Part shown: positions 57,796 through 63,933 of the stretch, one piece after another | How positions within the stretch are numbered: position 1 is the stretch's first letter | How the letters are laid out: the number at the start of each line of letters is the position of its first letter | Source of the DNA: Escherichia phage vB_EcoM_G8 | Direction: 5' to 3' (one strand) | DNA: 64,000 bases | Sequence record: NC_054915.1 | Made by a program: the position numbers and the translations under genes | Notes under the pieces: generated by a model | Seen by the model: only the letters and a program-made list of their open reading frames with translations | Told to the model about the DNA's origin: nothing | Databases searched by the model: none

Positions 57796-59847
57796 TTATC
57801 CTTGAACGAACTTGTAAGGCATGTTTGCAATATCTATGCAAGACGCAATAATTCCAAGAGATGATTCTACTTTCTGTTTAACATTTGATGAAACAAATGA
57901 TGCAAAGTCAACTCTATCTTCTATATCACCTGTCATTGTAACCAATTCACCAGTTTCCATTAAACGGTCACCGTCATAAATTACCGATTCGGTGAGTTCT
58001 TCTGTGGTCATAACTTCAGCTTGAATAAGCTTGTTGTTAGTTCTAACTGTTCCATCGTTGTAAGATGCATCGGTTATTTTATTAACTTTGACCATTAATC
58101 CACGTGGCAAAATGACTTCCATTTCATTTGAAGGCGCTAAACTTCCACCGGGTAAAACAACATTGACCTTATCAGCCCCAGTAATAACCCATCCAATTCC
58201 AACTAAATTATCACTAGAATTTACAAGTCCTTCATCAGTTTTATCAATAGAAACACTTAAACGCTTTTCGTCTGGTAAAACACCCACAGATGAATCAGTC
58301 ATCCAAGTACCAAAAATATTTGGATATAATGATGTTGACACAAAGTTTCTAAAATAAAAAACTCGATTTTTTACCATTGCTTCATATATTGAAGGTAACA
58401 TTCGTTGTGAACGATACAAAGTAATACCTTTTGGTAATCGTTCACCATTTTTAAAGGCTGAATCTAAATTATCAATGGCTTGTTCTATTTCAGGTGCTGT
58501 TAAAATACTTGTACGCTCATCTGGATTATATAATCCCAAAAGAGCATTATTCATGTCTACATATCCTGAACCTACATATTCACGAATTCCGCGTTTTTGC
58601 GCTGGTGTGTATTTAGATGAATCTTTATTTTCGACTATAGGATGTAATGACCATCCAGCGGTAAGAGCATATCCACGTAATTCTCTTCGAATAATCTTTG
58701 TTTTTATTGCATTCCAAGAATTTTGTACTAACTCATTTGCAGCATCTTGGTTTAAATGCGAATGTCTGTTAATATTTCTTTCAAACCAAGCACCTTTATA
58801 TTTTTCTAAAGTATCATCAACTATAGAAGCAATAGTTTCTAAAGTTTTTATTGAAGTAATAGATTCTTTTCGTAATCTTTCTAAAGCTTTATTTTTTATT
58901 TCTGCATTAATAATGGATTCTTTATCTTCAGGAATTATAGAAGCTTCTCTGAATGCCATTCCAGCTGTAACACTACTAAGAGCATTCTCTAATGCAAATC
59001 CTGAAGTAGAAATAACAGTTAATTCATTAGCGTCAGAAATTAAAGGAGCGTCCGCTGGTTTATTTAATTCTGCCGCTGAAGCCTCAAATTTTTGAAACAT
59101 CGGTGTTTCAAATCTAGAAGATTCCAATGACTGACTTTGTGCAATTGCTCTACGGGAAATTTTAACTTTAACGATTACAGCTTGGTCAGAACGTTTATCA
59201 TTTTCTTGTGCAATAGATGCTGCAATTGCCTCATTTTTAGTTACTTGAGCTCCAGTATCTTTATTGATATAAACATCACCGACCTTCGATTCAACTTTAG
59301 TAAAGAGCTCGGTACTAATTTCCGGAACCCCTGGAATGTCTTCTAGTGATACATTTTTGCGATGTATAAGAATATATGCATACTTTTTATCATAATCCCA
59401 GAGTTCCTTAAGAAGGACGTATCTGCCACCTGAACGACTACGGATAAGTCTATCAGCAATAACTTGAATTTGTCGAGCTTGACCGGCGGTTTTAGACTTA
59501 AGAATACGAAGCATACAAGCATCAATTTTATACTGACGCATTGTTTGCATTGCAACAGTAAAAACCGAATTGATATAATTAATTGGGCTTGGACCAAGAC
59601 CTTTCAATTTAGCAATTGAACCTTTAGCGGTTAATGTAAAAGGAACAATATGCATCATTTTATCGCCCATCTTTAAATCACGATTAGTATCACCTCCAGA
59701 TGTATAGGTACATAAACGAAAGCCTGGTTGTTCAATTGCGTCATCAACATGAACTGAAAAAATTTGCGGTATTTTCTTCTTTGGATTTAAGTTTGTAATC
59801 GGAAGAGTAGTATCTTCGTCAAATAATTCTGTAATTAGTTCCATCAT
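57796..59847 (-). CDS. alt: ADP-ribosyltransferase Alt (packaged and injected)
   Basis: 683 aa; size and position between gene 54 and gene 30; N-terminus MMELITELFDEDTTLPITNLNPKKKIPQIF. Confidence 0.85.
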   Translation of the reverse strand: MMELITELFDEDTTLPITNLNPKKKIPQIFSVHVDDAIEQPGFRLCTYTSGGDTNRDLKMGDKMMHIVPFTLTAKGSIAKLKGLGPSPINYINSVFTVAMQTMRQYKIDACMLRILKSKTAGQARQIQVIADRLIRSRSGGRYVLLKELWDYDKKYAYILIHRKNVSLEDIPGVPEISTELFTKVESKVGDVYINKDTGAQVTKNEAIAASIAQENDKRSDQAVIVKVKISRRAIAQSQSLESSRFETPMFQKFEASAAELNKPADAPLISDANELTVISTSGFALENALSSVTAGMAFREASIIPEDKESIINAEIKNKALERLRKESITSIKTLETIASIVDDTLEKYKGAWFERNINRHSHLNQDAANELVQNSWNAIKTKIIRRELRGYALTAGWSLHPIVENKDSSKYTPAQKRGIREYVGSGYVDMNNALLGLYNPDERTSILTAPEIEQAIDNLDSAFKNGERLPKGITLYRSQRMLPSIYEAMVKNRVFYFRNFVSTSLYPNIFGTWMTDSSVGVLPDEKRLSVSIDKTDEGLVNSSDNLVGIGWVITGADKVNVVLPGGSLAPSNEMEVILPRGLMVKVNKITDASYNDGTVRTNNKLIQAEVMTTEELTESVIYDGDRLMETGELVTMTGDIEDRVDFASFVSSNVKQKVESSLGIIASCIDIANMPYKFVQG

Positions 59848-59896
59848 ATCCTCTCTAGTGTTTATTCTATTTATAAAATTAAAGGCCCGAAGGCCT

Positions 59897-60085
59897 TTAG
59901 TAATCTAGTGGTAAGAGAGTACGATATATTTCAAACTTTGGTCCTTTTTCATAGGCATCAAATGTTTCTGTGAATTTATTATAAGCGTATGCATCTACAA
60001 ATTCGAGAATGACTTGTGATACAGAAGTAGAAACATCTCCACCTTCTTTTTGAGCAATGACAATTGTTTCTAAGTAAGCTTTCAT
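59897..60085 (-). CDS. hypothetical small protein
   Basis: 62 aa; 4-nt overlap with the gene 30 stop. Confidence 0.5.
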   Translation of the reverse strand: MKAYLETIVIAQKEGGDVSTSVSQVILEFVDAYAYNKFTETFDAYEKGPKFEIYRTLLPLDY

Positions 60086-61545
60086 AGACCAGTTACCTCA
60101 TGAAAATCGCCAAATACATCTTCGAACGTATTAGCTTTAGTTTTATCTTCACGTAAACGAATCGCAATCGGAAGAAATAATTTAACGTAATCAGTGCGGC
60201 CATCAGATTTTAACCAACCGTTGCATTCGCACTCTAGAATTTTTCCAATATAATAATTTTGGTTTTCCATAATGCGAGTACGGTCAAGTTCATGCGATTT
60301 TACACCGGCTTTATCTTTTAAGCCTGAACCAGCATTTACCTTAATTTTTCCACACTCTGACTCAAGAATAAATCCACCTGCTTTAGTAGGGTCTTTACGG
60401 TGAGGATAAATTCCTACAATTTTTAAATCAACATCAATTACTTCTTTAAATTTATAGATATTTTTTGAACGAGCATTTTCCCATAATCCATCGATATTTT
60501 TGAGAATAATACCTTCAAGACCTTGGTCAATATACTTTTTATAAATTACCTTAGCTTCATCTAGGTTATTTACTACCTGGTTTTCAATTAAAATTACTTT
60601 ATCATAGCCTGATGTCATTTGTTCTAGTTTAGAAAAACGTACATCATATTTCAAACGAAATGCAGGAAGACCGTATATTTCTACCAACGGGACATAATCC
60701 CAGACCTGAAACTTCATGCATTGAGCTTCTTTTTCAGAAATGGTTCCCTTTAAAGATTTATTGGCGATTCCATTAGAAGTAGTACGTGATTCAGCTACTT
60801 CGGCGAATTCTTTGGCTTTACTAATTTCAGGATAAGCATCAAAAAGAAAATCTAGGCCTTCTGGCTCCTTTTTAACTTGCTCATGGTATACCAATTCGCC
60901 ATCAATTAACACGCCTTCTGGATGAATCTGGCGGGCTTCAGCGGTCATTTTGATTAATTCTTCCTTAAGAAGATCTAATCCTAGATATTCATTACCGGCT
61001 CGTGATAAAAGACGAACATCATCTAATTCATCACCTCTGACTTCGGCAAAGCACCGAGCCCCATCAGCTTTTAACTGGGCAAAGGCTGGAAATTTGATAT
61101 TCTTATTAATGCCTTTTTCATCATAAGAACTTGCAAGCATTTGAGGTTGTTCAGGAATTAAACCTGGCCAAACTTTGTTTGCAATAGATACTGAAGCACC
61201 ACATTCAAGGTCTCGCATCATCACTCGACGCAAAACTTCAACATCATCTTTTTTACCATCGGTGATATATCCAGTTAATTCCTCAATTGCTGCATTTCCA
61301 GTCAATTTCCGAGTAGCTAATGTGAATTCAATGAAGTCAAGCATATCGGTAAGAGTCAACATTCCAAAACTCTGGGTAGCAATACCAGGTTTAGGCCATT
61401 TCTTGATATAATACTGCAACCCACGAGAATAAGTCAGACGATATACTCGTTTAAGCAATTCATTATCTTCATTCTTTTCAAGAATTGCTTGCTTCTGCTT
61501 AGTTGAACCAATAGATGCTATTTCGTTCAGAATTTTAAGAATCAT
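60082..61545 (-). CDS. 30: ATP-dependent DNA ligase gp30
   Basis: 487 aa; adenylation motif AQLKADGARCF (KxDG). Confidence 0.92.
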   Translation of the reverse strand: MILKILNEIASIGSTKQKQAILEKNEDNELLKRVYRLTYSRGLQYYIKKWPKPGIATQSFGMLTLTDMLDFIEFTLATRKLTGNAAIEELTGYITDGKKDDVEVLRRVMMRDLECGASVSIANKVWPGLIPEQPQMLASSYDEKGINKNIKFPAFAQLKADGARCFAEVRGDELDDVRLLSRAGNEYLGLDLLKEELIKMTAEARQIHPEGVLIDGELVYHEQVKKEPEGLDFLFDAYPEISKAKEFAEVAESRTTSNGIANKSLKGTISEKEAQCMKFQVWDYVPLVEIYGLPAFRLKYDVRFSKLEQMTSGYDKVILIENQVVNNLDEAKVIYKKYIDQGLEGIILKNIDGLWENARSKNIYKFKEVIDVDLKIVGIYPHRKDPTKAGGFILESECGKIKVNAGSGLKDKAGVKSHELDRTRIMENQNYYIGKILECECNGWLKSDGRTDYVKLFLPIAIRLREDKTKANTFEDVFGDFHEVTGL

Positions 61546-61811
61546 TATTCATCCTTCAGAGTTTGGTTTACAGCTCTATTATAAATCAATTCATCATTAA
61601 GCTCAGTCAAAGACTTATGATATGTGGTTCTAACTTTATTTCCTTGCATCCAGTGCTTGATATAAATGAAACCTTGCTCTACACATTTTTTAAAAATTCG
61701 TTCGTCTTTTTGAGCTCGGAATTCTGGATTGCATCTAAAAAATTGATTTACGTGACCGTAATCACGTGTAGTATTACCTTCATTTTCATAAATAGTGTGA
61801 ACAACAAACAT
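61545..61811 (-). CDS. hypothetical protein (30.1-like position)
   Basis: 88 aa ORF immediately upstream of the ligase gene. Confidence 0.65.
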   Translation of the reverse strand: MFVVHTIYENEGNTTRDYGHVNQFFRCNPEFRAQKDERIFKKCVEQGFIYIKHWMQGNKVRTTYHKSLTELNDELIYNRAVNQTLKDE

Positions 61812-62659
61812 TAGAATGCTCCTTGGAAAATATTATCACCACTAGTAAGTCTATTAAAATACCCTGCGTCGCCAGGCTTAATATAACTCCACGTATGGAA
61901 TGGATGCATCTGGTGTGAGTGCGTATAATATGGATGATATGGATTATAAGGATTAAATCCAGGAGTTCTCCAGGTAGTGTTCCAGCGAAAAGAATCGTTT
62001 TTAATCATCTTCTCAATTACATCTTTTATAGCTTTTTCACTATCAAAACTTTCTTTATTTTCCTTTGATGGAAAAAGCTTATTCTCTACATCATTCCATG
62101 TATAAACTCGCTGTGCAGTTTTTGGAATACTGTCACGCTCTCCTCGAGCCATCCAATAAACTGGAACATTTAATATTTCACTCGCATGATCGCAGTGGTG
62201 AGCGAGATCGTCAATATAACAAATTACGTTATATTTCTCTTTTGCCTTTTTGAACAACTCTTCTTTTGAAGAATCATGACCACACATCAATACTTCTGAG
62301 AAGGCACCAGGAAAAAGAGCATTCAAATTAAATTGACGATTCAGCAGAGCGTCAATAGAATCACCCAATGCTGTAACAGCTACAAAATTATAATCTTCTT
62401 TTAATTTGTTAATTACACACAGGGCATCTTTATATGGCGACAAGTAACGAATAAAATCTGAACGATTGTATTTTTCAATTAGCTTAACGCCAAGTTCTTC
62501 ATCACAATTAAAAAGTTTACCAGGAGAAATAAATTTCTCATCTTGGATCATTTTTAAAATATGTTCCAATGGAAGATTATATTTCTGAGCAAAATAAGGA
62601 AGGCCTGATTGCCAGCTTAAACATACTCCATCAATATCAGTTAAAATAGTAGGCTTCAT
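61811..62659 (-). CDS. HAD-superfamily hydrolase-like protein (30.2-like position)
   Basis: 282 aa; N-terminal ILTDIDGV matches HAD motif I (DxDG). Confidence 0.6.
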   Translation of the reverse strand: MKPTILTDIDGVCLSWQSGLPYFAQKYNLPLEHILKMIQDEKFISPGKLFNCDEELGVKLIEKYNRSDFIRYLSPYKDALCVINKLKEDYNFVAVTALGDSIDALLNRQFNLNALFPGAFSEVLMCGHDSSKEELFKKAKEKYNVICYIDDLAHHCDHASEILNVPVYWMARGERDSIPKTAQRVYTWNDVENKLFPSKENKESFDSEKAIKDVIEKMIKNDSFRWNTTWRTPGFNPYNPYHPYYTHSHQMHPFHTWSYIKPGDAGYFNRLTSGDNIFQGAF

Positions 62660-63120
62660 AGAGAGTCTCTTAATAGGTTTAACACATCAATAAATTCAGC
62701 TTCGGTTAGTATTGTATCATCTTTTGTTAGACCACTAGCCATGCTGTGCTTCAAAACTTTTCCTTTCGAGACTTGTAATGCATCACGAAAGCCCTTGTTT
62801 TGGATCGCTGCTTCAAAATATGCATTTGTGTATAATTCTTTCCACGCCGGGGAGTATCTTGAAAACGGAACTCCGAGCCAGAAGAGGGTCCCACGGTCCT
62901 GAGCTCTTGCATAAGACCTTCCAGCTTGCTGTGCGGCCAATCCAGACAACCCAAATATACGACGTTGTTGTTCAACATTTTTCACCTTGCACTCTTGGAG
63001 GAATCCTTCAAGACCTCCAAATTGAATACCATCCATAACGAAAGGCCATTGGGCGAAATTACTTAATGCGCATGATGGCCATCTAAAACTACTTCTAATC
63101 TCTAACTCAGACATTTTCAA
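62656..63120 (-). CDS. NADAR (YbiA-like) family protein (30.3-like position)
   Basis: 154 aa; LSNFAQWPFVMDG...EGFLQECK and AAQQAGR segments resemble E. coli YbiA as recalled from memory. Confidence 0.5.
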   Translation of the reverse strand: MKMSELEIRSSFRWPSCALSNFAQWPFVMDGIQFGGLEGFLQECKVKNVEQQRRIFGLSGLAAQQAGRSYARAQDRGTLFWLGVPFSRYSPAWKELYTNAYFEAAIQNKGFRDALQVSKGKVLKHSMASGLTKDDTILTEAEFIDVLNLLRDSL

Positions 63121-63312
63121 TACTTATAATTTCAACATCAGCCCAATGACCATAGCAAGGAAGACGAAATTCAACTGGCCAGTTAGGGTCCTTTCTAATA
63201 TAATAGACTCAACTCGTGGTTCTTCATGTTCATCAGTATATGGATTTTTATCTGTTACTTTATATGTGACCTTAATGTACTGAATTCCAAAAATCTTATT
63301 AATTAATTATAT

Positions 63313-63510
63313 TCATACTAATTCCTTTAATCCGTAAATAGGAGATAATTCATCACCCATGCGAAGGTCTTCATTTCCATCTACCCAGGAAACAATATAA
63401 GCCTCTTTTATTTGAATACCACTCCATTTAAATGGAGGTAGAACCTTAGAAATTAATCCAGGTATACCAACTCCCTTTAATTCAACAGTTTGACCTAAAA
63501 AGAATTTCAT
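63313..63510 (-). CDS. hypothetical protein
   Basis: 65 aa ORF. Confidence 0.5.
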   Translation of the reverse strand: MKFFLGQTVELKGVGIPGLISKVLPPFKWSGIQIKEAYIVSWVDGNEDLRMGDELSPIYGLKELV

Positions 63511-63892: not shown

Positions 63893-63929
63893 CTTTGGAA
63901 AATAAAAAAAGGACTCCCGAAGGAGTCCT
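63893..63929 (-). terminator. rho-independent terminator (minus strand)
   Basis: AGGACTCC-CGAA-GGAGTCCT hairpin with a long A-run on the plus strand giving a U-tract in the minus transcript. Confidence 0.7.
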
Positions 63930-63933
63930 CAAC

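Follow-up and report, generated by a model that had tools for sequence, protein, structure and literature searches.

The closest described counterpart of the locus analyzed here is gene 30.3 of phage T4, whose product AdfN (anti-DarT factor NADAR) is a guanine-DNA ADP-ribosylglycohydrolase that defeats the DarTG1 defence system (Johannesman et al. 2025, PMC11825919; PMC11125620). In vitro, T4 AdfN stripped ADP-ribose from DarT1-modified DNA, and the activity was seen on guanine-ADP-ribosylated DNA and not on thymine-ADP-ribosylated DNA (PMC11825919, PMC11125620). Deletion of the gene rendered the phage sensitive to DarTG1, and the substitutions E36A and K43A weakened the protein (PMC11825919). 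T4 AdfN was fully effective in T-even infections only, which indicated that another T-even protein is probably required (PMC11825919), and it gave uninfected E. coli no protection against DarT1 (PMC11825919, PMC11125620). The RB69 allele, which lacks the C-terminal helix of AdfN, was inactive, and truncation of this helix lowered activity (PMC11825919). The third catalytic position differs among the branches of the superfamily: it is His in gp30.3-type phage NADARs, Glu in YbiA and Asp in the DarG1-type proteins (PMC11543638, PMC11125620). The second T4 answer to DarTG systems is directed at DarTG2, which is countered by a different gene, tk.4/adfM (HIDEN-SEQ preprint).

The window analyzed here, a stretch of 64,000 nucleotides of Escherichia phage vB_EcoM_G8 (NC_054915.1), comes from a T4-like phage, and the T4 gene order alt, alt.1, ligase (30), 30.1, 30.2, 30.3 is identical in it. 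The original prediction had placed a HAD-like and a NADAR-like protein upstream of DNA ligase, translationally coupled and within the same early block as Alt and the ligase. Both open reading frames were confirmed on the minus strand at the predicted positions, and the gene order agrees with the proposed early block. For the NADAR-like frame, predicted at 62656-63120, the stop was correct and the TTG start at 63120 was not: the true start is the ATG at 63114, as annotated in T4, and with this start the residue numbering fits the published catalytic residues E36 and K43. Full-length adfN (T4 gene 30.3; 152 aa), coding for a NADAR-superfamily DNA ADP-ribosylglycohydrolase, thus occupies 62656..63114 on the minus strand, and gene 30.2 (282 aa), coding for a HAD-superfamily phosphatase-like protein, occupies 61811..62659 on the same strand. 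The TGA stop of adfN and the ATG start of 30.2 overlap as ATGA at 62656..62659 (minus strand), in line with the predicted coupling. Further downstream on the minus strand (60082..61811 together) lie gene 30.1 (61545-61811, DUF3045, Pfam PF11243) and the DNA ligase gene 30 (60082-61545, 99% identity to the T4 ligase), and overlaps of 1-4 nt recur at the 30.2/30.1, 30.1/ligase and ligase/alt.1 junctions. The T-even early genes 30.3 and 30.2 would accordingly be read as part of one translationally coupled chain running into 30.1 and the ligase gene. The ORF 30.3', annotated in T4 and located in another frame inside adfN (62751..62978, minus strand), was identical to its T4 counterpart at 64 of 75 residues, against 148 of 152 for the adfN frame; it is thus the less conserved of the two and bears no sign of selection.

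The protein encoded by 62656-63114 is the product of gene 30.3, i.e. AdfN, a member of the phage gp30.3/AdfN branch of the NADAR superfamily. It aligned end to end with T4 gp30.3 (97% identity) and matched the Pfam family PF08010 over the complete profile (positions 1-138 of 138, E=5.6e-69, 230.7 bits at a cutoff of 36), which settles the Pfam check that had been proposed for NADAR. The Pfam NADAR family PF08719 was matched by 23 of the 63 AdfN family members, with a best E-value of 1.5e-7. The profile of the AdfN family matched E. coli YbiA over the catalytic motif (E=0.01), the sole PDB match of this profile, whereas single-sequence phmmer searches against the PDB were uninformative for both AdfN and gp30.2. 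The AF2 model of AdfN (pLDDT 92.8, pTM 0.88) was compared with the PDB by Foldseek, and the three top matches were YbiA (2b3w), PnNADAR (8bau) and the G. lovleyi NADAR (8bat), with probabilities of 0.99-1.00, while for the fourth match the probability dropped to 0.02. Thus, the predicted resemblance to NADAR/YbiA is borne out by both the profiles and the fold.

Of these structures YbiA was the best match (Foldseek 6.9e-5, TM 0.66) at only 18% identity; it represents the riboflavin-intermediate N-glycosidase branch, a housekeeping branch whose third catalytic residue is Glu and from which the AdfN branch differs. With the DarG1-type NADAR antitoxins (E. coli C7, Geobacter lovleyi 8bat) and PnNADAR, AdfN shares the fold, the Glu/Lys catalytic pair and, as its sequence predicts, the reaction, namely hydrolysis of guanine-N2-ADP-ribose on DNA. 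In contrast to these proteins, AdfN lacks an N-terminal extension, its third catalytic residue is His rather than Asp/Glu, and it is encoded as an orphan without an adjoining DarT.

The catalytic helix E36-G-F-L-Q-E41-C-K43 is encoded by 62986..63009 (minus strand). Within the 63-member family the published catalytic residue E36 (63007-63009) was invariant and K43 (62986-62988) was present in 61 members; these two residues correspond to E88 and K95 of the E. coli C7 NADAR. The third catalytic-acid position is held by H123 (62746..62748, minus strand), which was invariant in the 63-sequence alignment and comes right after strand 120-122 in the AF2 model. The C-terminal helix, residues 138-152 (62659..62703, minus strand), is intact, as indicated by a model helix at 138-151 and by the full-length alignment to T4. 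The present protein therefore has in common with T4 AdfN the length, E36, K43 and H123, the C-terminal helix and the location upstream of 30.2-30.1-ligase-alt. It differs by four substitutions, among them A115V and, within the catalytic helix, a private G41E, and by the state of the upstream gene 30.4, which is intact in T4 and frameshifted here.

Because the T4 ortholog has this function, and because, at an identity of 97%, catalytic residues and C-terminal helix alike are intact, we infer from sequence an anti-DarTG1 function for the present AdfN. As a stand-alone NADAR-fold enzyme it would cleave the guanine N2-ADP-ribose bond that DarT1 installs on phage DNA, using E36, K43 and the phage-branch H123, with the C-terminal helix needed for full activity. 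Removal of the ADP-ribose would make the DNA replicable again, and DarTG1 abortive infection would be defeated. In the published T4 Tn-seq table (HIDEN-SEQ preprint), which we read here, adfN insertions had a log2FC of -7.25 on DarTG1, and the T4 transposon data indicated that adfN is dispensable in the absence of DarTG1. The suggestion that a phage NADAR could counter DarTG thus holds for DarTG1, i.e. for guanine modification, on the strength of experiments on the 97%-identical T4 protein, but not for DarTG in general, since DarTG2 needs tk.4/adfM. The same data bear on another possible role, in which AdfN mainly reverses the modifications made by the phage's own Alt, ModA and ModB or degrades soluble ADP-ribose-derived signals. 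Although adfN shares the early block with alt, and soluble ADP-ribose derivatives were proposed as targets of phage NADARs in comparative work that predated the experiments (PMC9503650), we regard this role as very improbable, as the DarTG1 phenotype of adfN is direct and strong, the enzyme acts on guanine-ADP-ribosylated and not thymine-ADP-ribosylated DNA, and the gene is non-essential without DarTG1.

The tight arrangement of the two genes had implied a functional pairing of the HAD and NADAR proteins. In such a pairing, gp30.2 would either be the T-even factor on which AdfN depends for full activity or act as a phosphatase to clear away the ADP-ribose that AdfN releases. This would be in keeping with the ATGA coupling, with the direct adjacency of 30.2 and adfN in all close T-even relatives, and with the probable requirement of T4 AdfN for another T-even protein (PMC11825919). 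At the level of whole genomes, co-occurrence was uninformative, since 30.2 and 30.3 alike belong to the near-core of T4-like phages (1438 records for 30.2 and 1509 for 30.3, with the same genus spread). At the level of loci, synteny ties 30.2 to the ligase instead: the ligase gene was found on the same strand, no more than 2.5 kb downstream of 30.2, in 69 of 74 loci, whereas adfN was upstream of 30.2 in 35 of 76. The adjacency is thus missing from roughly half of the 30.2 loci, and also from most distant AdfN loci; among the 67 with AdfN below 50% identity, a 30.2 homologue was located downstream, beside the ligase, in five, and one more had a weak match (27%) upstream. In the published T4 Tn-seq comparison on DarTG1, which consists of one control and one experimental sample, insertions in 30.2 were without phenotype (71 sites, 271.5 vs 249.8, log2FC -0.12, p=0.61, q=1), and 30.3 and 30.4 were the only significant genes genome-wide. 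Partnership of gp30.2 with AdfN in either form is therefore highly unlikely, and as a cofactor of AdfN gp30.2 is ruled out by synteny together with the Tn-seq table. The two genes would be neighbours through the operon layout and not a two-part anti-DarT system.

The HAD character of gp30.2 had been predicted from its DIDGV motif, found at residues 8-12 of the 282-aa frame, and the protein indeed has four conserved HAD motifs within a confident fold. Motif I, D8-I-D10-G-V, comprising the nucleophile Asp and the general acid/base Asp, follows strand 4-7 (62624..62638; this and the following motifs on the minus strand). Motif II, T96, is at the end of the model strand 91-97 (62372..62374), motif III, K132, is located before helix 133-142 (62264..62266), and motif IV, the Mg2+ ligands D150-D151, is at the end of strand 145-150 (62207..62212). 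In the 53 family members D8, D10, G11, K132, D150 and D151 were invariant and T96 nearly so; among 96 distant relatives D8 and D10 were again invariant, D151 was present in at least 90%, and K132 was also invariant in the distant-relative alignment. The core (residues 1-197) was modelled by AF2 with pLDDT >90 as a Rossmannoid HAD fold with a four-helix C1 cap, the cap helices being within residues 16-65, and is followed by a disordered tail rich in aromatic residues, Pro and His (residues 198-282, nt 61814-62068, minus strand).

The Pfam check proposed for HAD gave a different outcome from that for NADAR: in Pfam and NCBIfam no HAD family matched gp30.2 at E<=1 and there was no NT5C hit, and the placement of gp30.2 among the HAD proteins thus depends on its motifs, its fold and transitive homology. 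Matches to thiamine pyrophosphokinase in both databases were at chance level and were dismissed as noise. As to homology, 42 of 95 distant relatives passed or approached the threshold of the NT5C family PF06941 (best 4.2e-10), with gp30.2 itself below it, and 19 of 95 matched PF00702/PF13419. Mouse cdN (2jao) was the best match of gp30.2 both by Foldseek (2.4e-8) and by profile comparison with the PDB (E=0.037), in an alignment that pairs motif I and then W16-Q-S-G-L of gp30.2 with F-E-S-G-L. The HAD core, the four-helix C1 cap and the aromatic-x-S-G-L segment after motif I are common to gp30.2 and the mammalian enzymes cdN/NT5C (2jao, 2i7d) and mdN/NT5M (1mh9), although the identity is 14-20% and gp30.2 has family-specific invariant residues (R108, N111 and R172) as well as the 85-residue disordered tail. 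The motifs and the structural model support gp30.2 as a C1-capped HAD phosphatase-like protein, with the 5'(3')-deoxyribonucleotidases (NT5C) as its probable closest relatives.

By this assignment, gp30.2 would be a Mg2+-dependent phospho-aspartyl phosphatase whose substrate is most likely a small nucleotide, namely a (deoxy)nucleoside monophosphate, and which may edit the nucleotide pool. Precedents for such a role, in which a phage-encoded HAD-type nucleotidase acts early in infection to edit or dump the dNMP pool, are Dtm of PBS1, an mdN-like dTMP phosphatase (PMC12697855), and Dmp of T5, a deoxynucleoside-5'-monophosphatase. In T5 Dmp, motif I reads DxDGT, comparable to the HAD motif of gp30.2; it was rejected as a homologue, with an hhalign probability of 1.5% and nothing in common beyond motif I. 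T4-like phages carry 30.2 whether or not their cytosine is modified, and its role is therefore independent of any single DNA modification. In T4, 30.2 insertions were neutral on K-12 (72 of 72 sites hit) and in M9 (log2FC -0.10), and our literature search on gp30.2, or on a T4 HAD protein or deoxyribonucleotidase, retrieved nothing relevant.

Alternatively, gp30.2 may serve the adjoining ligase as a nick-healing 3'-phosphatase acting on DNA (or RNA), following the logic of PNKP-type healing and sealing systems, which combine a HAD phosphatase with a ligase. Its near-universal adjacency to the ligase would fit such a function, as would a weak PHROG match to polynucleotide kinase (phrog_415, E=0.0042), a match of one relative to PF25109 (HAD_PNKP), and one metagenomic protein in which a Pol-beta-like 'DNA polymerase' PHROG is fused to a 30.2-like domain. 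However, T4-like synteny is conserved in general, so that the adjacency is weak evidence either way. In the extra regions of the domain fusions Pfam was empty, a PDB sequence search with the N-terminal region that matched the 'DNA polymerase' PHROG returned noise, and a single fusion is too thin to decide function. A known example of a HAD phosphatase beside a ligase-type function, the 3'-phosphatase domain of T4 Pnkp (end healing for RNA ligase), shares with gp30.2 the weak PHROG and Pfam cross-matches; gp30.2 has no kinase domain, and it has the large C1 cap that PNKP-type phosphatases lack. A cap is typically missing from HAD enzymes whose substrates are macromolecular ends, a C1 cap being typical of small-molecule phosphatases, and the cap modelled over the active site of gp30.2 is a confident four-helix one. 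In addition, T4 already encodes Pnkp, and the nearest relatives of gp30.2 in both sequence and fold are nucleotidases. We therefore consider the end-healing function unlikely and favour a nucleotidase-like activity.

The variable disordered tail of gp30.2 probably docks onto a partner protein. A nucleotidase docked at the replisome by a motif in this tail could be envisaged, a weaker reading than that of a 30.4-encoded helper for AdfN (see below). The motif in question is a conserved hydrophobic-E-Y-L, found 15-19 residues before the C-terminus and similar to SLDFL, the clamp-binding motif of gp43 and gp55.

With gp30.2 set aside, the published screen data point to the other neighbour of adfN. 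Directly upstream of it, alignment to T4 and a three-frame read revealed a remnant of gene 30.4 (63107..63316, minus strand) with a 4-nt insertion, which leads to a stop after five codons, and a 1-nt deletion, and in this region there was no minus-strand ORF of at least 20 aa. In every T-even relative the 30.4 stop overlaps the adfN start (ATGTCTGA), and this start is preceded only by a weak TAAG Shine-Dalgarno sequence; adfN appears to be translationally coupled through 30.4. Insertions in T4 30.4 were depleted on DarTG1 (log2FC -1.79, adjusted p 0.014), not in M9 (log2FC -0.05). Homologues of this 68-codon gene were detected only beside T-even-type adfN; tblastn found none beside distant AdfN genes, at a sensitivity too low for a 68-aa protein to mean absence. 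This may indicate that the T-even helper of AdfN is encoded by, or delivered through, 30.4 and not the HAD gene 30.2, which we put forward as a doubtful suggestion. More mundanely, 30.4 could be needed solely as a leader through which translation of adfN is coupled. If 30.4 does supply the helper, the present phage is a natural 30.4-null with AdfN G41E and is predicted to be partly DarTG1-sensitive.

The substitution G41E sits two residues from the catalytic K43, and, taken together with the broken 30.4, it suggests that AdfN activity or expression may be lower than in T4. Such a weakened or decaying module, in which the gene is present and the counter-defence is partial, is a tentative possibility. 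G41E is private to this phage: the other 62 family members and all 81 loci have S, G or A at position 41, and among 300 phage records no second case was found. The 30.4 frameshifts are equally private: the insertion was not found in 428 phage records or in IMG/VR. The weak Shine-Dalgarno sequence, at a start normally overlapped by the 30.4 stop, and the depletion of 30.4 insertions on DarTG1, not seen in M9, are also consistent with weakening. However, AdfN retains its catalytic residues and an intact C-terminal helix, the 30.4 indels may stem from mistakes of sequencing or assembly within AT-rich repeats, and the Tn-seq result on DarTG1 comes from a single control and a single experimental sample.

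Taken together, it is quite probable that 30.3 is adfN, that 30.2 encodes a nucleotidase-like HAD phosphatase, and that the two are neighbours by operon layout rather than a two-part anti-DarT system. The anti-DarT role of adfN, as originally predicted, is correct but already known, and its recognition from raw sequence adds nothing new. For gp30.2, which is near-core in T4-like phages (~1,400 genomes) and whose phosphatase active site is intact, a function as the helper of AdfN can now be excluded, and the published screen data direct attention to the tiny upstream gene 30.4, which is broken here. The points on 30.2 and 30.4 are modest, testable leads and not a discovery, while adfN itself is a textbook-in-the-making case of a phage orphan antitoxin-like enzyme that undoes the DNA modification of a defence system.

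The minus-strand gene block of the window followed the T4 order gene for gene, with alt (57796-59847), alt.1 (listed between alt and gene 30), the DNA ligase gene 30 (60082-61545), 30.1 (61545-61811), 30.2 (61811-62659) and 30.3, now called adfN (62656-63114), each matching its T4 counterpart; megablast gave 651 T4-like phage records, with a top identity of 97%. The NADAR-like ORF of the original prediction proved real, but its start was misplaced: T4 annotation puts it at the ATG at 63114 rather than the TTG at 63120, giving 152 aa. The DIDGV motif of the proposed HAD protein lies at residues 8-12 of the 282-aa gp30.2, and both genes share one block with alt and ligase, as predicted and as in T4. 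The proposed translational coupling was borne out by the ATGA at 62656-62659, in which 30.3 stops and 30.2 starts, and overlaps of 1-4 nt run on along the gene chain below 30.2. Strong terminator-like hairpins were seen on the minus strand at 63909-63930 (GGACTCC-TTCG-GGAGTCC, then a T-run) and 59880-59899 (AAAGGCC-TTCG-GGCCTTT); they bracket the chain from 30.6 to alt.1, which is consistent with a single transcription unit. Directly upstream of adfN, no sequence in the window made a convincing sigma-70-like promoter.

The 30.3 product matched Pfam PF08010 (Phage_30_3; E=5.6e-69), Pfam NADAR PF08719 was also matched by 23 of the 63 aligned family members, and the family profile matched E. coli YbiA over the catalytic motif (E=0.01). 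The AlphaFold model (pLDDT 92.8) had exactly three convincing PDB matches, namely YbiA (2b3w), the Phytophthora NADAR with ADP-ribose (8bau) and the Geobacter lovleyi NADAR (8bat), and E36 and H123 were invariant in the family alignment, with K43 nearly so. Profile, fold and catalytic residues thus upheld the NADAR assignment.

NADARs reverse the guanine ADP-ribosylation made by DarT1, and a His variant was remarked in the phage enzymes (Schuller et al., PMC11543638). In a 2024 study (PMC11125620), T4 gp30.3 hydrolysed guanine-ADPr DNA in vitro but failed to protect E. coli against DarT1. Johannesman et al. 2025 (PMC11825919), who gave 30.3 the name adfN, found that T-even resistance to DarTG1 requires adfN and that adfN suffices for it, and that E36A, K43A and the RB69-type C-terminal truncation impair it; because it reached full function in T-even infections alone, a further helper was implied. 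When T4 transposon mutants were screened on DarTG1, adfN had a log2FC of -7.25, which confirmed the requirement (bioRxiv 10.1101/2025.11.20.689424). The window protein is identical to T4 gp30.3 at 148 of 152 positions over its full length, and by sequence 30.3 of this phage is AdfN. Given this identity and the published function, the counter-defence idea was real and rightly interpreted, yet already known, having been published and mechanistically characterised in 2023-2025. It holds for DarTG1 and not for DarTG at large; T4 meets DarTG2 with tk.4/adfM (bioRxiv 10.1101/2025.11.20.689424).

Two private substitutions were noticed in AdfN: A115V (codon 115, 62770-62772) and G41E (codon 41, 62992-62994), the latter in the catalytic helix, after E36 and two residues ahead of K43. 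Position 41 was S, G or A in every other sequence examined, and the 70-nt stretch around the codon had a 100% match in no phage record. The T4-annotated ORF 30.3' (62751-62978, minus strand), nested in an alternative frame inside adfN, is open in the window too; its protein is 85% identical to T4 as against 97% for the adfN frame, which argues for a lack of purifying selection on the nested frame. In many T4-like phages the adfN ORF was truncated or fused (proteins P0007, P0012, P0013, P0049 and P0089; phage records H69-H72), with partial adfN sequences linked to Pfam families PF06919, PF11097, PF06019 or PF26911, and RB69-type alleles matched residues 1-144 only; adfN is therefore often damaged in nature. 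Rhizobium, Sinorhizobium and Ochrobactrum phages carried AdfN-like genes as well, and so did contigs of jumbo-phage size (250-420 kb).

The last letters of the 68-codon gene 30.4, ATGTCTGA, overlap the adfN start in T4 and in every close relative; adfN itself has no more than a weak TAAG as ribosome-binding site. Gene 30.4 is whole in T4 and in each relative examined, but a pseudogene in the window (63107-63316, minus strand): a 4-nt insertion, absent from 428 phage records and from IMG/VR, brings a stop after five codons (MNIIN-stop), and some 120 nt past it the loss of 1 nt restores the frame. The T4 screen returned exactly two significant genes genome-wide on DarTG1, adfN and 30.4 (log2FC -1.79, adjusted p 0.014 for 30.4; bioRxiv 10.1101/2025.11.20.689424); 30.4 was neutral in M9 in T4 transposon data. 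Gene 30.4 may act as a leader that couples translation to adfN, or gp30.4 may be the T-even-specific helper implied by the AdfN literature; detectable 30.4 homologues were found only beside T-even-type adfN. The broken 30.4 and the private G41E together suggest a possibly weakened AdfN module in this phage, although they may stem from sequencing error.

For gp30.2, direct Pfam and NCBIfam scans gave no HAD profile for the protein itself; the proposed HAD assignment stood instead on motifs, fold and profile matches of relatives. Across the four HAD motifs of 53 homologues, D8, D10, G11, K132, D150 and D151 were invariant and T96 nearly so, and D8, D10 and K132 remained invariant across 96 relatives at 21-32% identity. 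The AlphaFold model was confident over residues 1-195, with a Rossmannoid core and a four-helix C1 cap (residues 16-65), and disordered over the C-terminal ~60 residues. Mouse cytosolic 5'(3')-deoxyribonucleotidase came out on top twice: for the model in Foldseek (2.4e-8) and for the sequence profile run on the PDB (E=0.037). An exhaustive profile search gathered 1,330 clusters; among 95 distant family members, 42 matched Pfam NT5C (best 4.2e-10) and 19 generic HAD models. Because these lines agree, we read gp30.2 as probably an active phosphatase of the phospho-aspartyl type, in the NT5C-like branch. Its substrate, which like the role we infer, is most likely a nucleoside monophosphate, since a capped HAD closes over small substrates. 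Literature searches on gp30.2 function found no paper. Precedents for phage nucleotidases are the mdN-like Dtm of PBS1 (PMC12697855) and Dmp of T5, which has only motif I in common with gp30.2. A hydrophobic-E-Y-L/W/Y motif was present in 17 of 57 gp30.2 tails (homologues P0101-P0155), 16 of them 15-19 residues before the C-terminus, as against 1.5 expected from shuffles. The T4 version, GIEYLY, is similar to the C-termini by which gp43 and gp55 bind the clamp (SLDFL[FY]), and in the tail encoded in the window (61814-61900) the motif is degraded to DAGYFN.

A profile search found 78 30.2 loci, 74 judgeable for ligase and 76 for adfN. Of the 74, 69 had the ligase gene no more than 2.5 kb past 30.2 and on its strand, whereas adfN lay upstream in only 35 of the 76. 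Among 67 AdfN loci below 50% identity, just five carried 30.2 on their downstream side, next to the ligase gene; a sixth had a weak 27% match upstream. Tens of kilobases separated the two genes in many T4-like genomes of the Klebsiella and Enterobacter type. In T4-like genomes of these two types and of the Erwinia type, an AdfN homologue (36-45% identical) lay ~55-60 kb from the 30.2-ligase block, as read on the same contigs (loci L016-L081 versus L095-L115, e.g. IMGVR_UViG_2974666281_000001). Both 30.2 and 30.3 are near-core in T4-like phages (1,438 and 1,509 records, same genus spread), and their co-occurrence is therefore uninformative. In the published Tn-seq table, control versus DarTG1 (Data S6, bioRxiv 10.1101/2025.11.20.689424), T4 30.2 had mean counts of 271.5 and 249.8 over 71 sites (log2FC -0.12, q=1); T4 transposon data also gave insertions in 72 of 72 sites on K-12, where the gene is non-essential, and neutrality in minimal medium. 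Synteny and this neutrality argue that gp30.2 is no part of the anti-DarT function; the 30.3/30.2 coupling reflects how the operon is laid out and does not mark a two-part system.

The neighbouring ligase gene would also suit a DNA-end 3'-phosphatase working with ligase, as would weak PNKP cross-hits of gp30.2 and relatives and a single case of fusion with a Pol-beta-like domain; the modelled C1 cap and the nucleotidase affinities speak against this role, which we consider unlikely. In that fusion, the 591-aa metagenomic protein P0251, the 30.2-like HAD domain (residues 385-581) follows an N-terminal domain matching PHROG 24943 'DNA polymerase' (E=1.7e-34), whose GDLDII motif we read as nucleotidyltransferase-like; this single case hints at a DNA-related role for some 30.2-family members. 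The residual value lies in the exclusion of gp30.2 as the partner of AdfN, a better-founded annotation of gp30.2, and the 30.4 lead.
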